From: Thermoproteota archaeon
Lineage (GTDB): Archaea; Thermoproteota; EX4484-205; JAAOZP01
NCBI GenBank assembly: GCA_049700215.1
Contig: JBNAVT010000006.1
Coordinates: 21,731-85,730, forward strand
Direction of reading: 5' to 3'
Length of the DNA: 64,000 bases
The notes beneath the pieces were generated by a model. That model worked only from the letters and a program-made list of their open reading frames with translations, was not told where the DNA came from and made no database searches. Shown piece by piece: positions 46,858 to 54,856 of the stretch. Numbering within the stretch: position 1 is the first letter of the stretch; each line of letters starts with the position of its first letter. A program made the translations under genes and the position numbers.

Positions 46858-48252
46858 TTAATATTTCTTGTGGGCGAGCTTGTTCCCAAAGTCCGCTAGG
46901 CTACTTTGGCGGTAGAAGCCCTCAATTTCCCCATAAACCCCATCGTATCCCGGCCTGATTCTCACCATGTCTCTTCTAACCAGGTCAACCACCTGGGCCA
47001 GCCTCTTGTCGCGTTTCGCAATCTCTTCAACAGGTGTTTCAATAAGCAGGCGGTACTCGCTTCCAAAATCTCTTACTAGACTGTAGTAAATGCTCCAGGT
47101 CTTCTTGGAACCCGGGCTCGTAGAGTAAGCGTAGCCTATTATTTCGGACAAGGGTATTAGGTGAACATAGTCTGCAGCGTCTCCAGGTCTAATCCCTTTA
47201 GGACGGTCGGCGAGTTCTTCTATATGCGTCTCCACACCGAGTGTAAGCTTCCTGCCGCAAACCGGGCATATCCCCTTGAGCTTGAAATACCTACGAGGCT
47301 CGACCGAAACCCCGCACCGTCGACATCCTGAGTTGTAGTACTTTCCGTACTCCGGATGGGTTTCTACAGTTAGAATTATTCTAGAATTTCCTTCCTTACG
47401 GATTGCGTTTATTATGCTCTTATAGCTCAATTCTTCTAGAAGCATCAGGTTGGCTTCTCTGCCAAGCCTCCAGGGATAGTAAGAGTGGGAATCACTGTTT
47501 GAAACCAGCGTGTAACGATCGTTGCTCGAAACCCTCCAGTTCATCAACGGATCCGAGGATAATCCTGTTTCGAGAGCATGTATCTCACTATACTTATCTT
47601 TGTAACAATCTTTCACACTATTATAACCGTGAACACCAAAAATGCTGAAATGGGGAGTCCACACGTGGGCCGGGAAAACCTCAATATCGTCTGAAACACT
47701 CTTTAAGATTTCCACGAGCTCGGGTGAGCTGCATTTCAACAAGGGTCTGCCGTCAGCACTCAGGTCTCCAATATGCGCCATAGCGTCACAAGCCTGTTTA
47801 ACGGTTTCGAAGTCGGGGAAGAGAACCACGTGGTGGATCCTTTTGACGGCGCTCCCGTCCTGGTAAACCGTGTTAACCTCGCCCTGGAGTATGAAAAGCG
47901 TGGCCTTCTCAGGGTTCTTTTCGCTCCTAAGCCTGTAGAGCCCGGGGCTCTCCTCTACAAGGCTCTTCTTAAGCTCCCTAAGCCACTTGGGATGCGTGCA
48001 GTCCCCGGTGCCAACTATGTTGAGACCTTTTAGCTTGGCGGAGAAAGCAATGTTCTCAAGAGTCATGTCTAGGCTTGTGGCCCTGCTATACTTCGAATGA
48101 ATATGCATGTCAACATAGTAGGAAGGCTTTTCCCTGAAGTCTCTGAGAAGCTGTTCAAGCCTCGTCAACACGGAGGGAGGTTTAAGAGATATGAAGGATG
48201 AGACTCGAGGGTTAAGGGTTAAAAGGCCGCTCATCCTTAAGAATGACAACAT
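46858..48252 (-). CDS. endoQ: Endonuclease Q family (PHP domain plus zinc finger)
   Basis: DMHIHSKYSRATS, GTGDCTHP, PAHVWTP, ETGLSSD, SNSDSHS, LGRE, CxxC..CPVC, PGYDGVYG; true start likely near 48171. Confidence 0.9.
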   Translation of the reverse strand: MLSFLRMSGLLTLNPRVSSFISLKPPSVLTRLEQLLRDFREKPSYYVDMHIHSKYSRATSLDMTLENIAFSAKLKGLNIVGTGDCTHPKWLRELKKSLVEESPGLYRLRSEKNPEKATLFILQGEVNTVYQDGSAVKRIHHVVLFPDFETVKQACDAMAHIGDLSADGRPLLKCSSPELVEILKSVSDDIEVFPAHVWTPHFSIFGVHGYNSVKDCYKDKYSEIHALETGLSSDPLMNWRVSSNDRYTLVSNSDSHSYYPWRLGREANLMLLEELSYKSIINAIRKEGNSRIILTVETHPEYGKYYNSGCRRCGVSVEPRRYFKLKGICPVCGRKLTLGVETHIEELADRPKGIRPGDAADYVHLIPLSEIIGYAYSTSPGSKKTWSIYYSLVRDFGSEYRLLIETPVEEIAKRDKRLAQVVDLVRRDMVRIRPGYDGVYGEIEGFYRQSSLADFGNKLAHKKY

Positions 48253-49699: not shown

Positions 49700-50060
49700 A
49701 ATTCTTTCTCTCCAAAGCTTTTACGAAAACATTCTCCAAGCTTCTCCCAAGCCGGTGGAAGCTAACGAGCTCACAACCAGTTCGGCTAATTAACCTTGGG
49801 ACCTCGCAGCGTATAGCCGAGGCGTCCCCCTTGACGTATAGGGTATTGTTTTTCAACTTAACCATTAAACCTAAGCCGCGCAAAGCAGTTGCAAGCTCAT
49901 CTGGCTTAGTGACCTTTAACGCATAGACCATGGATGAGTATCTTTCTAAAAGGTTTTCCACATAATCCTGCTCAATAGCCTTTCCCCCATGCATCAGGCA
50001 AACCCATGAGCAAGCCTTCTGCAACTCTGGCAGAACATGGCTGGATATGAGGAAGCCTAT
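49689..50060 (-). pseudogene. C-terminal remnant of an ABC exporter ATPase
   Basis: Frame reads IGFLISSHVLPELQKAC (H-loop) from 50060 and ends SLENVFV; Walker A/B and signature absent; abuts AGCGCGCGCT. Confidence 0.85.
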
Positions 50061-50070
50061 AGCGCGCGCT
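50061..50070. repeat. Palindromic junction motif AGCGCGCGCT at the ATPase breakpoint; partner AGCGCGCGT at 48353-48361
   Basis: Read directly. Confidence 0.85.
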
Positions 50071-50106
50071 CTAATCCTGTCCCCGCCTTCATGAATTACA
50101 AGTTTT

Positions 50107-50311
50107 GGGCCCAGGCTAGTAGGCTCACCCTCCCCAATCCGCTTTTAAACAAGCCTGAGGAGGATGCTTTTACTCCGCAACACCCTGGGAAGGCTGCTTC
50201 AACCTCTCCACGGGTTTCACGCCCAGTCCCCATGGTCAAGGCGGCTTGTGCCCTCCTCAAGACGTTGAGGCCTGCTTCAGGGTTTCCCCCGGGCAGGAGC
50301 CTGGTCTACCC
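50107..50311 (-). ncRNA. Candidate structured non-coding RNA, about 205 nt, family unknown
   Basis: Terminal stem GGGU-AGA-CCAGGCU / AGCCUGG-GCCC encloses six hairpins with G-U pairs and a GAAA tetraloop; no credible ORF; TATA-like box upstream. Confidence 0.6.
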
Positions 50312-50334
50312 TGTTCATACTGTTTTCAAGACGG

Positions 50335-50345
50335 TATTAAGCGTT
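50335..50345 (-). promoter_or_regulatory. Putative BRE/TATA element (AACGCTTAATA) for the candidate ncRNA
   Basis: TTAATA at 50340-50335, 24-29 nt upstream of the terminal stem. Confidence 0.5.
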
Positions 50346-50370
50346 ACGCATCAAGCGGCTTAGCGAAGCC

Positions 50371-50952
50371 CTATTTTCCGCCTGAGCCGGCTCCAGAAGC
50401 GGTGCCGGGCCTCTTTAGCGAAACGTATAGCACTCCGGTGAAAACGATTAACAGGCTGATCGACAGGATTCTTGCGGCACTAGCGTCTACTCCAAGATCC
50501 CCTAGGAGCAATTGGATCATCGGCGCTGAAAACACTATTATAACTGAGACTAAGAGGAGTATCTCCCTGACGGATGGGGGGGCGATTCTCCCTGCTCTGG
50601 AAAACAAGTATGCCGCTATGCCGGATAATGCTAATGCTAGCGACGCTAAAATCGGCACTGTGGAGGCGAACCCCCTTAGCATTGTTTGAGCCAGAAGCAG
50701 TATTGACATCATGAAGCTTGATACGAAGCACCTTAGCCCAATACTCCTCATTCTCTGCGCAGCCTCCATCTCTTTAATCAGGAATGGGAGTACCGCTCCT
50801 AGGAGGATGAGGATGGAGCTGAAAAGGTTGACTCCTGTTCTTAGAAAGCCAGTGACCTGTAGGCTGGTGACGAATGTGAATGCTGCGAGAACGGCTAGGC
50901 CCACCAGCACCAGCAGGTTTCCGGCAGAGTAAACCGCCTCTTTCTTCTCCAA
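50371..50952 (-). CDS. Hypothetical membrane protein (about 6 TM)
   Basis: Hydrophobic ORF co-oriented downstream of trmI. Confidence 0.65.
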   Translation of the reverse strand: MEKKEAVYSAGNLLVLVGLAVLAAFTFVTSLQVTGFLRTGVNLFSSILILLGAVLPFLIKEMEAAQRMRSIGLRCFVSSFMMSILLLAQTMLRGFASTVPILASLALALSGIAAYLFSRAGRIAPPSVREILLLVSVIIVFSAPMIQLLLGDLGVDASAARILSISLLIVFTGVLYVSLKRPGTASGAGSGGK

Positions 50953-52951: not shown

Positions 52952-54856
52952 CTAGCCGCCCTGCTCCGGCGGGATGGGTGGCATATAGTGGGCTTCGCAA
53001 TGCCTACCCGGGATAATGCTGCGAATCTTCTCAAGCAGCTCGGGAAGTGATTCAGGAGGCAGCGACGTATCTTTTAAAAACTTCTTCGCGAGCGCAGCTG
53101 CTTCACGATTCTTGTCTTTTTCCCCCGGCAGGATTACAGCGTACTTTCTACACTTCTCCTTCACCTTGCTTAGGCTTCCATAGACTACCTCGCCATCGTC
53201 AGCAACACCGATCCAGAGCTTGAGCTCCACGTTTCTGATGAAGTTCTTCTCACCCCTTATCATGAACGCCCCCCTAGGGAGGTACTGTCCTGAAGGAGCC
53301 TGCTTGCCCACTTGGCTTCCCCTCACCCAGTAGACGTCGAGCGAAGCATACTTGTTCTCCCAGGCTCTCGTGGTGTAGCATGCTGCCATCAGCGCAGCCT
53401 CCTTCAACTCCTCCTCAGAAGGGTTCTCAACGTTATGTATGGTTACGAATGGTGCCCCAGTGAAGTCTGCATGCAACACTATGCTTCCGTCTGAAACATG
53501 CTTCTTAACAAGAAGCTCGTTTGTCCCAGCATCCTTGCCGGCTAGAATCAGGTTACCGTTAACCGATAGGTTCCAGCGAAACTTCTCATACCATTTTCTT
53601 TCAGCCCTCTTCTCAGGAATCATCCTCCTCCTTTCAGCGGAGGTCTTCTCCTTAAGCGTCAGAATCTTGGCATCGATCTCGGAAAGATGCTTCTCTATTT
53701 TCTTAGCCTCTTCAAACATGCTTGAAGCGTTCGACGCGGCTGAGGAATCAAGGCTAAGCTTGAACTCGGAATCGTTAAACAATATTTTAACAATCCTCTT
53801 TCCGTAGTCTGTTTCAAGAATCTTGAAGCCAGCGGGCACTTCCCCCCTTTTCCTTACAGCGTCTAGAACACTCTGGAAGCCTGCAAGGTTCTCCATTATC
53901 ATCCTAGCCCTGCTCCTTAAAGCCTCTACTTCAGAAGCAAGGTTCTCCCTTACTCTAACCAGTCTACCCAGCTCTAAGGATGCTCTCTCCTCCCCGCCCG
54001 GGGCTTCAAACCCGAGTGCAGCATAGTACTCGTCTAAAGCCTGTGAAAGGGTTTCCGCCTCCTTCTGCTCAACATCCTGGAGGGAGAGGAGCCTTATTCC
54101 AGACACGTCGACCGGGTGACCGTCGCGATAATAGGTTCGCGGCTTAGGAGACTCCTCAGCCTCCTTGATAAGCATCCGGATTGTCTCCACTACGAGCGGA
54201 ATCTTTCCTTCAGCGCTTGAATCAGGATCCAGCCCCGCCCTCCTGCAGATTTCACGCATCGTTTTAGATCCGAAGCCCAGCCTGCCGGCTATCAGCCTGC
54301 TGAGCTTTTCTGAAGAATGCTTCTCCAAGGCTTCAAGGCTTCCGGGAGCACTCGCGGGGTCGAGTATGTTGGACGGTGGGAAAACGTATTTCTCACCCTC
54401 TCTGAGCGACCTAGCCTCCATCTCGATCCTTTTCGAGGTGAAAAGAATACGCCAGTCTTCGGAGACGAGGGCGAGGACTCCGCGTTTCAAACCCTCTGCG
54501 ATAAGCCTAGCTTTAAACCCTCCCCTGGAAAGGCTTATGACGATGATCCTGTCGAAGTCGTGCTGCTCAACATTCTCAACCCTAAGGTTGCAGGCCAGTC
54601 TCCTAAGCTGCAATACGCTGCTCTCAGGAGTGCTCGGGACAGGATAGTCGCGGTTGGTTAGGAACAACGATTCACCAGGTATTATGACGAGCTTCTTGAC
54701 AGTCCCGCTGCTCCGGAATACCACTAAGTAGTATCCATACTCAGGATGGCTGTACACGTTGTCAACCCATGCTCCCTGCAGCTCTCTGGAAAGCTCCCTG
54801 GAAAGCACTAGGTAGTCGATGCTGGAAAGACTTATTTTCGGGGCTCTCAACCTCAA
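52952..54856 (-). CDS. rqcH: Ribosome quality control factor RqcH (NEMF/Rqc2 homolog)
   Basis: EQHDFDRII (NFACT-N), WYEKFRW, GKDAGTNE, HAD, APSGQYL.RGAFMIRG (NFACT-R). Confidence 0.93.
   Translation of the reverse strand: MRLRAPKISLSSIDYLVLSRELSRELQGAWVDNVYSHPEYGYYLVVFRSSGTVKKLVIIPGESLFLTNRDYPVPSTPESSVLQLRRLACNLRVENVEQHDFDRIIVISLSRGGFKARLIAEGLKRGVLALVSEDWRILFTSKRIEMEARSLREGEKYVFPPSNILDPASAPGSLEALEKHSSEKLSRLIAGRLGFGSKTMREICRRAGLDPDSSAEGKIPLVVETIRMLIKEAEESPKPRTYYRDGHPVDVSGIRLLSLQDVEQKEAETLSQALDEYYAALGFEAPGGEERASLELGRLVRVRENLASEVEALRSRARMIMENLAGFQSVLDAVRKRGEVPAGFKILETDYGKRIVKILFNDSEFKLSLDSSAASNASSMFEEAKKIEKHLSEIDAKILTLKEKTSAERRRMIPEKRAERKWYEKFRWNLSVNGNLILAGKDAGTNELLVKKHVSDGSIVLHADFTGAPFVTIHNVENPSEEELKEAALMAACYTTRAWENKYASLDVYWVRGSQVGKQAPSGQYLPRGAFMIRGEKNFIRNVELKLWIGVADDGEVVYGSLSKVKEKCRKYAVILPGEKDKNREAAALAKKFLKDTSLPPESLPELLEKIRSIIPGRHCEAHYMPPIPPEQGG

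Follow-up and report, generated by a model that had tools for sequence, protein, structure and literature searches.

The 64,000-nucleotide (nt) stretch of Thermoproteota DNA analysed here (contig JBNAVT010000006.1 of assembly GCA_049700215.1; hereafter the window) carries on its minus strand, at 50104-50311, a stand-alone, conserved, single-copy gene for a non-coding RNA (ncRNA) with its own TATA-like box. The RNA folds as a perfect four-way junction with zero linker bases, in which helix P1, hairpin A, arm B and arm C meet. Its termini make up the motif called bulge-helix-bulge (BHB), with a 4-base-pair (bp) helix GGGU/GCCC between two 3-nt bulges on opposite strands. We consider it likely that the locus is the gene of a new archaeal ncRNA family whose four-way-junction product is excised at the BHB motif and turned into a 201-nt circle by the endonuclease EndA and the ligase RtcB. 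The RNA family would thus be new, and its pathway of production a known one. We regard gene, fold and BHB motif as solid, and a kissing loop and a function are put forward below as hypotheses. The features of the locus, in the order in which the RNA is read, are as follows.

50335-50340, minus strand: TATA-like box TTAATA, read directly; it precedes the first G of the RNA by 24-29 nt.
50308-50311, minus strand: GGGU, the 5' strand of helix H, which pairs with GCCC at 50107-50110 and is predicted to be discarded on excision.
50305-50307, minus strand: AGA, the 5'-strand bulge, with predicted 5' cleavage AG↓A; three unpaired nt in all 28 homologs (AGA, AAG, AUA or AGG).
50298-50304, minus strand: 5' strand of P1, CCAGGCU (the inner helix h' of the BHB motif); 7 pairs with 50111-50117, 6 of the 7 compensatory, 99% of cells paired.
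50271-50297, minus strand: hairpin A, with the 5-bp base CCUGC/GCAGG and, in the window, a GAAA cap; all 5 base pairs covary.
50175-50270, minus strand: arm B, closed by CAACGUCUUG/CAGGGUGUUG and ending in the stem 50229-50235/50208-50214; 28 of 31 pairs compensatory (helices 4-9).
50215-50228, minus strand: apical loop of arm B, GACUGGGCGUGAAA, the sole internal sequence conserved family-wide (GG.A.UGGGC..GAAAC).
50118-50174, minus strand: arm C, made up of a base (AGUA/UACU), internal loop, 12-bp helix and GUUUAA as its apical loop; 20 of 20 pairs compensatory (helices 10-12).
50111-50117, minus strand: 3' strand of P1, AGCCUGG, from the covariation alignments.
50107-50110, minus strand: GCCC, the 3' strand of helix H, kept in the RNA contigs; in the circle it would be part of the 7-nt loop GCCCAAA that caps P1.
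50104-50106, minus strand: AAA, the 3'-strand bulge, with predicted 3' cleavage AA↓A; invariant in 17 genus sequences.
50105-50305, minus strand: predicted mature circular RNA of 201 nt; 50104-50304 fits equally, within a run of A.

The sequence-only reading of this DNA had placed a structured RNA on the minus strand at exactly 50107-50311, with a new archaeal ncRNA with its own promoter among its interpretations, and both are supported. The minimum free energy of the minus strand of 50107-50311 is -103.6 kcal/mol, compared to a mean of -81.7 kcal/mol for shuffled controls (z = -4.68), and none of the 200 shuffles was as stable. The plus strand of the same interval is unremarkable (z = -0.54; 56 of 200 shuffles as good). 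In the alignment of 17 species of the genus, the conserved block begins at the first G (50311) and ends at GCCC-AAA (about 50104), and in the more distant congeners the blastn match starts and stops at the predicted borders of the RNA. The TTAATA box that the reading had pointed out is present and its position is fixed across the genus alignment; its sequence is largely kept and the spacer between box and RNA is variable. From the position of the box, transcription would begin at or near the first G. An oligo-T run, read by eye, follows the trailer in most of the homologs found outside the window's genus and may be a transcription terminator. The novelty of the RNA agrees with the lack of an Rfam match and with the strong covariation, both described below.

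Covariance models were built in three rounds and 29 sequences were gathered. RNAalifold predicted 67 pairs on a MAFFT alignment of the 17 genus sequences, with compensatory changes in 14 of them; arm B was among the elements predicted on this alignment, which was not fitted to any model. In the model-fitted alignment of all 29 sequences, 60 of the 67 pairs had changed on both sides and 95.1% of 1903 cells were standard pairs. None of 500 shuffles reached any of the pairing measures of this alignment, and when the partner strand was slid by 1-3 columns as a control, the pairing fell to 33-51%. The terminal pairing GGGU-AGA-CCAGGCU with AGCCUGG-GCCC, noticed in the sequence-only reading, is borne out by the covariation alignments. 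Six internal hairpins had been proposed as well. Those at 50271-50297, at 50208-50235 and at 50132-50160 stood, the last as part of a longer arm, whereas the local hairpins at 50255-50270, 50191-50205 and 50161-50186 did not. Their bases lie instead in inner helices of the long arm B and in a long-range helix, in which CAACGUCUUG (50258-50267) pairs with CAGGGUGUUG (50178-50187), and compensatory changes support all of these helices. The tip of hairpin A differs in length and sequence between species, with 1-3-nt indels in this hairpin. Loops of the GNRA type, judged by eye, close several tips of hairpin A and arm C; such loops occur in other compactly folded RNAs. With near-universal covariation of its pairs, GNRA-type tips and a dedicated promoter, the RNA bears the marks of a functional compact fold.

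The layout of the termini corresponds to the H-B-h' part of the archaeal splicing motif, which is defined by two 3-nt bulges, one on each strand, on either side of a 4-bp helix (PMC7714728, PMC4731332). Neither these BHB termini nor the circular form had been noticed in the sequence-only reading. The succession of 3-nt bulge, 4-bp helix and 3-nt bulge is found in all 28 tabulated homologs, with a non-standard first or fourth pair in a few. Within helix H, GGG/CCC is invariant in 28-29 of the 29 sequences, and the fourth pair is UG, UA, AU or CG in 26 of 29. The 3' bulge of the 11 homologs outside the genus is AGA in nine, AAA in one and AGU in one. All 11 also have an outer helix between leader and trailer, of 6-11 contiguous pairs (mean 8.4), compared to a mean of 2.4 pairs in controls with mismatched leaders and trailers (n = 110; 12% reach at least 5 pairs). 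The sequences of these outer helices vary between genomes, and the helices therefore covary as a whole. Compared to the window, the same homologs have their TATA-like box some 10-15 nt further upstream, with space for the leader in between. Several of them, for example those in genomes G019, G158, G187 and G175, are textbook hBHBh' motifs. The genus of the window retains helix H, both bulges and the invariant GCCC-AAA. The flanks of the signal recognition particle (SRP) and RNase P RNAs in the same genome show no BHB motif.

The RNA is covered by contigs of RNA libraries, some of which carry the back-joint expected of a circle. Parts of the stretch are present in 21 public runs, mostly hot-spring metagenomes, two of them on record as RNA. 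We examined the contigs of these two RNA runs (X9 and X21, from different studies) and of two runs labelled metatranscriptomic that are probably DNA (X16 and X17). A 232-nt contig of X9, 95-99% like the window, consists of 50175-50293, of 12 letters that correspond to 50294-50304 plus an extra G, and then of 50104-50201. A 127-nt contig of X21 runs through 50208-50304 and continues with 50104-50127. All other contigs of X9 and X21 fall inside 50104-50304, and GGGUAG (50306-50311) is without cover in both runs. At both borders, the contigs of X16 and X17 continue into diverse flanking sequences, and the joint is in none of them. Written in the sense of the RNA, the junction is GCCC-AAA-CCAGG. 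In canonical BHB cleavage, the cut separates the second base of a bulge from the third. The joint of 50304 to 50104 matches the product of the BHB motif, because cleavage at AG↓A and AA↓A followed by ligation gives exactly this sequence. An assembly artefact is an unlikely source of the joint, since P1 and helix H together offer only 11 nt, which is too short. The length of the X9 contig fits an isolated de Bruijn cycle of about 201-202 nt plus k-1, with an assembler k that we take to be 31. The circle is thus well supported, and its support lies in these contigs.

Both enzymes of the presumed pathway are encoded in the genome of the window (G000; 2.09 Mb, 94.6% complete), with two EndA paralogs (PF01974, 98.7 and 82.8 bits) and RtcB (PF01139, 486.6 bits). 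Two EndA paralogs would fit the heterotetrameric enzyme of TACK archaea. The RtcB match itself, at C17:13780-16578 (L176/L177), is split: profile positions 3-50 and 46-426 are matched about 1.5 kb apart within one 984-aa frame, which suggests a large insertion, for example an intein, in this gene.

We propose the following course of events. EndA would cut both bulges, at AG↓A and AA↓A, and RtcB would ligate the ends of the excised RNA; a 6-nt 5' piece would be lost and a 201-nt circle would form, in which P1 is capped by the loop GCCCAAA. Processing could also bear on the fold. The only letters conserved in at least 11 of 12 representatives of both classes are GGG.A at the 5' end, CCC at the 3' end and GG.A.UGGGC..GAAAC in the loop of arm B, which is 14-15 nt long across the representatives. 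After excision, P1 would carry a 7-nt loop made up of NCCC-A-R and one bulge base; its sequence is GCCCAAA for the genus, with ACCCAGG or GCCCAGG in most of the remaining sequences. YUGGG in the loop of arm B is complementary to CCCAR at the 3' end. Over 28 sequences, the Y-R position is U-A in 13, C-G in 10 and C.A in 5. A kissing contact after excision is proposed because the letters conserved family-wide are its two partners and the GGG that would mask one of them. In the precursor, the 5' GGG would mask CCC; excision would remove GGG and unmask CCC, and closure of the circle would make the loop NCCCAR. CCCAA in the P1 loop could then pair with (Y)UGGG of the apical loop of arm B and lock the compact fold only after processing. 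We regard the case for and against this contact, which is read from letters, as evenly balanced.

The distribution of the RNA was followed with blastn and with the covariance models. Among 60 relatives searched with blastn, the stretch was present in all 16 congeners (84-97% identity) and in none of the 44 genomes outside the genus. With model R2, 21 of the 26 genomes in the window's class (a single order here) gave one copy each, and these include all 12 class genomes with a completeness of at least 90%. The evidence suggests that this class corresponds to Brockarchaeota-type archaea. In a 151-genome sample of the phylum searched with model R3, the only match outside the class was in one Bathyarchaeia genome. 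The RNA is present in 5 of the 14 genomes of the family of that genome, and a 151-genome sample of Bathyarchaeia added two further families (1 of 2 and 1 of 1 genomes), giving 7 of 151 overall. Three Bathyarchaeia families, Hecatellales included, therefore carry the RNA. Each genome has one match. Scans with the pattern of the arm B loop gave loci that pass the model in 12 of 80 cases for genomes and in 5 of 80 for metagenomes, among the matches listed; most of what the pattern matched was chance. Two archaeal pattern matches, L054 and L099, failed the model, looked like coding sequence by eye and were dropped. The taxonomic range so obtained is a lower bound; the models are biased to the class of the window, and the true range is probably wider.

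To our knowledge, very few structured RNAs are conserved in archaea apart from rRNA, tRNA, SRP RNA, RNase P RNA and guide RNAs. Our best guess is that the new RNA is a stable, housekeeping-type scaffold or structural RNA of a novel RNA-protein particle in thermophilic Brockarchaeota-type archaea and some Bathyarchaeia. A constitutive structural RNA is favored over a regulator, a mobile element or a by-product because the gene is single-copy, is present in every near-complete genome of the class, forms its own transcription unit and is seen in two RNA libraries. A bolder version of this idea, in which the circle is the RNA subunit of a novel RNA-protein particle, or a ribozyme, of thermophilic TACK archaea, with a fold licensed by processing and with the circle as the only functional form, is possible but tentative. 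If it were true, these organisms would possess, next to SRP, RNase P and the ribosome, a gene dedicated to an RNA that occurs solely in circular form.

Several points weigh against the account given so far. The 29-sequence alignment was fitted to the structure of the model, which favors that structure, but what was obtained on the MAFFT alignment and with the slid controls agrees in direction. The evidence for the circle comes from assembled contigs and not raw reads, from which no ratio of linear to circular RNA, no strand and no true ends can be derived; one of the two RNA libraries is labelled RT-PCR (reverse transcription-polymerase chain reaction), and the junction is ambiguous by one A. 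The genus of the window is without a conserved outer helix, with a mean of 2.1 contiguous pairs compared to 1.8 in the mismatched control, and its TATA box allows a leader of no more than about 3 nt. For cleavage in this genus, a relaxed substrate made of helix H, one bulge and the inner helix would be required. The canonical hBHBh' motif is described as needing outer helices of at least 2 Watson-Crick pairs (PMC7714728), and the heterotetrameric EndA of TACK archaea as accepting relaxed BHB motifs (PMC7714728, PMC4731332). Five of the 26 class genomes gave no match, these five being 57-88% complete. Covariation supports the kissing pair at one position only, with five C.A exceptions, all in the genus, and a stacked four-way junction does not naturally place P1 next to arm B, such that arm B would have to bend. 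As to function, the RNA has no known protein partner, target or phenotype.

Among the other explanations, the one that survives best holds that the functional form is a linear RNA of about 205 nt closed by GGGU/GCCC, the circle being a minor by-product or an intermediate that is re-opened, as for archaeal 16S rRNA. The TATA box of the window's genus, which places the start at about the first G, the missing outer helix there and the invariance of GGG/CCC all agree with such a molecule, and the contigs cannot quantify linear against circular RNA. Re-linearisation of circular pre-rRNA is, moreover, the accepted view for cultured archaea (PMC12918454). Yet the contigs of both RNA libraries are confined to 50104-50304, include the back-joint and leave GGGUAG uncovered, and a full BHB motif with an outer helix in 11 of 11 homologs outside the genus would be purposeless for a simple linear RNA. 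We therefore judge the linear form improbable and retain the excised circle as the preferred reading.

A second explanation takes the RNA for a copy of a known universal RNA (SRP, RNase P or 5S) that is circularly permuted or has diverged to an extreme degree, with the permutation hiding it from Rfam. In its favor, a permuted circular SRP RNA processed at a BHB motif exists in Thermoproteus (PMC4731332), and a circle without fixed ends makes a permuted gene conceivable. All Rfam scans were run on the RNA in genomic, unpermuted order. At the gathering score, Rfam 15 had no match anywhere in the 64-kb window, and at E<=10 the interval 49900-50500 gave chance-level matches only, none relevant. 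Ten distant homolog loci likewise had no match at the gathering score, and none of the 4227 models matched locally on the RNA at E<=5, nor did any local match overlap the RNA in the window at E<=10. Matches to SAM_alpha, FTX_2, Ocean-VII and sR14, which appeared by E-value, all had E>=1 and were set aside as chance. With respect to SRP RNA (RF01857, gathering score 96.5 bits), no SRP model matched even locally, and the RNA has a four-way junction and not helices 5, 6 and 8. The sequence-only reading had considered a very divergent SRP-like RNA because of a helix-8-like spacing, which proved superficial. A full-length canonical Archaea_SRP RNA, scoring 136.5 bits, is encoded on a different contig of the same genome (C64:3139-3447). 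RNase P RNA (RF00373) gave no match on the RNA, and a canonical RNaseP_arch is present at C37:470-762 (187.1 bits); the type T model (RF02357) had no match in the genome, though it also missed all 14 control genomes, which makes this a weak negative. For 5S rRNA (RF00001, gathering score 38 bits, a three-way junction) there was no match on the RNA either, the 5S gene being at C37:6193-6329 (49.5 bits), and 5S rRNA was found in 24 of the 26 class genomes. SRP RNA, RNase P RNA and 5S rRNA are all present elsewhere, and therefore the new RNA replaces none of these. A disguised version of one of them is very unlikely.

Readings as K-turn, H/ACA, C/D-box, T-loop or SRP helix-8 elements were rejected by eye on the alignments, where the GA/GA, ACA and box motifs are absent or unconserved. 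ARAGORN found no tRNA or tmRNA gene in the 64-kb window. No title or abstract describing the RNA was found in the literature searched, and the circular-RNA lists of PMC3326292 and PMC12918454 may hold relatives.

Two observations on the known RNAs were made along the way. The 5S matches in most congeners and in several class genomes are 137-141 nt long and score 46-58 bits against the 120-position model, whereas the 5S of other class members is 120-122 nt long and scores 68-101 bits, which suggests an insertion in the longer 5S rRNAs. The RNase P RNA of G000 (L002:460-772, contig C37) is flanked by 10 bases on each side that are perfectly complementary, CAGGCAGGGG/CCCCUGCCUG, and extend its terminal helix bulge-free; this may be a processing stem without a BHB motif.

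The idea that the RNA is a mere intron, with the ligated leader-trailer "exon" as the product, or that the locus is a decoy for the splicing machinery, draws on the fact that BHB cleavage in tRNA splicing gives two ligated products (PMC4731332). We find this hard to credit, as the leader and trailer are unconserved in sequence and are absent or unpaired in the genus of the window, whereas all conservation of sequence and structure lies within the excised part.

Less likely still is a mobile or selfish element, whether viroid-like, retron-like or a transposon guide RNA such as the circular omega-RNA of IS200/IS605. Archaea do express circular isoforms of omega-RNA (PMC12558985), but the new RNA has one copy per genome, keeps its place downstream of trmI in three of the four families of the class, is without a transposase-like neighbor in the Pfam-scanned loci, and none of 18 matches of the arm B loop pattern on viral contigs passes the model. 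A cis-acting leader or riboswitch of the downstream gene, of which the sequence-only reading had thought, or a short protein-coding gene, for which an ATG at 50092 and overlapping open reading frames of 54 aa (minus strand) and 108 aa (plus strand) could be cited, is similarly unlikely, since the downstream genes vary by lineage, oligo-T follows the trailer in most homologs outside the genus, the RNA contigs end at the borders of the RNA, the 108-aa frame has no Pfam match, G005 has no frame of at least 80 aa over the RNA, and the changes are compensatory in the stems and 1-3-nt indels in hairpin A.

The gene neighborhood was also compared. In three of the four families of the class, trmI lies upstream of the RNA, with a small membrane protein between them in two; in two of those families the gene of a PHP-like protein follows immediately after the RNA, and the window has its homolog about 2 kb off. 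The neighbors in Hecatellales are unrelated. The neighborhood is thus uninformative and gives no functional lead. In the window, the protein between trmI and the RNA (50371-50952, minus strand) is a hydrophobic, membrane-like protein of 193 aa without a Pfam match, and counterparts of 185-192 aa occupy the same position in G023 and G019. The PHP-like protein, at 46858-48252 on the minus strand of the window and at L040:1850-3073, L041:1812-3053 and L037:1793-3004, is 403-464 aa long, with DMH.HSKYS near its N-terminus and CxxC pairs. At the thresholds used, Pfam gave no match to it; judged by eye, it looks like PHP-domain nucleases such as endonuclease Q. An NFACT-family protein (52952-54856, minus strand; NFACT_N and NFACT-R_1), a homolog of ribosome quality-control factors, is encoded upstream of an aminotransferase gene and of trmI, all with the same orientation. 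A 10-nt GC palindrome, AGCGCGCGCT, at 50061-50070, 37 nt downstream of the RNA, is unconserved in the other aligned species.

Set beside known systems, the proposed excised circle has relatives in its manner of production. Circular pre-16S and pre-23S rRNAs and the mature circular 23S rRNA of archaea (PMC12918454) are likewise described as arising from a BHB motif in a processing stem formed by the flanks, by excision and circularisation. These rRNAs are cut from long precursors, whereas the new 201-nt RNA comes from a short unit of its own and has no similarity to rRNA. Archaeal tRNA introns and other EndA substrates (PMC7714728) have the same hBHBh' geometry, and the excised part becomes a circle. 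Unlike in tRNA introns, there is no tRNA around the new RNA; here conservation and structure belong to the excised product, and the "exons" are short and lack conservation. For ncRNAs, circular forms are likewise reported in TACK archaea, in Sulfolobus and others (Danan et al. 2012, PMC3326292). Model R3 found the new RNA in none of the sampled phylum genomes outside the class bar the one of Bathyarchaeia; the lists of that catalogue may contain an unnamed relative. An omega-RNA of IS200/IS605 would be expected next to tnpB or iscB and in a multi-copy element, whereas the new RNA is without such a neighbor in the Pfam-scanned loci and has one match per genome.

The closest parallel comes from Thermoproteus tenax, whose SRP RNA is permuted and circular (Plagens et al. 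2015, PMC4731332). The two have in common a stand-alone gene, a TTAATA box, which in T. tenax lies 26 nt upstream of the start site, and a BHB motif, to which leader and trailer contribute in T. tenax and in the homologs outside the window's genus. The T. tenax RNA is reported to be cut by the heterotetrameric endonuclease and circularised presumably by RtcB, the junction restoring a hairpin loop needed for function. In the sources available, it is the only other cellular ncRNA found with the circle route of tRNA splicing, the processing of rRNA and tRNA aside. If the circle is confirmed, the moonlighting of EndA and RtcB would extend to a new RNA family across two classes of uncultured thermophiles, with a natural case where excision may switch the fold of an RNA and with a 201-nt RNA as a concrete handle for pulling down its particle. 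The T. tenax RNA can be recognised as an SRP RNA and binds SRP19 and SRP54, whereas the new RNA matches no family; the genome of the window keeps a canonical, linear-type SRP RNA gene, and the new gene is not known to be permuted. Thus, the proposed route of production is the same as for the SRP RNA in T. tenax, and the RNA itself is unrelated to it.

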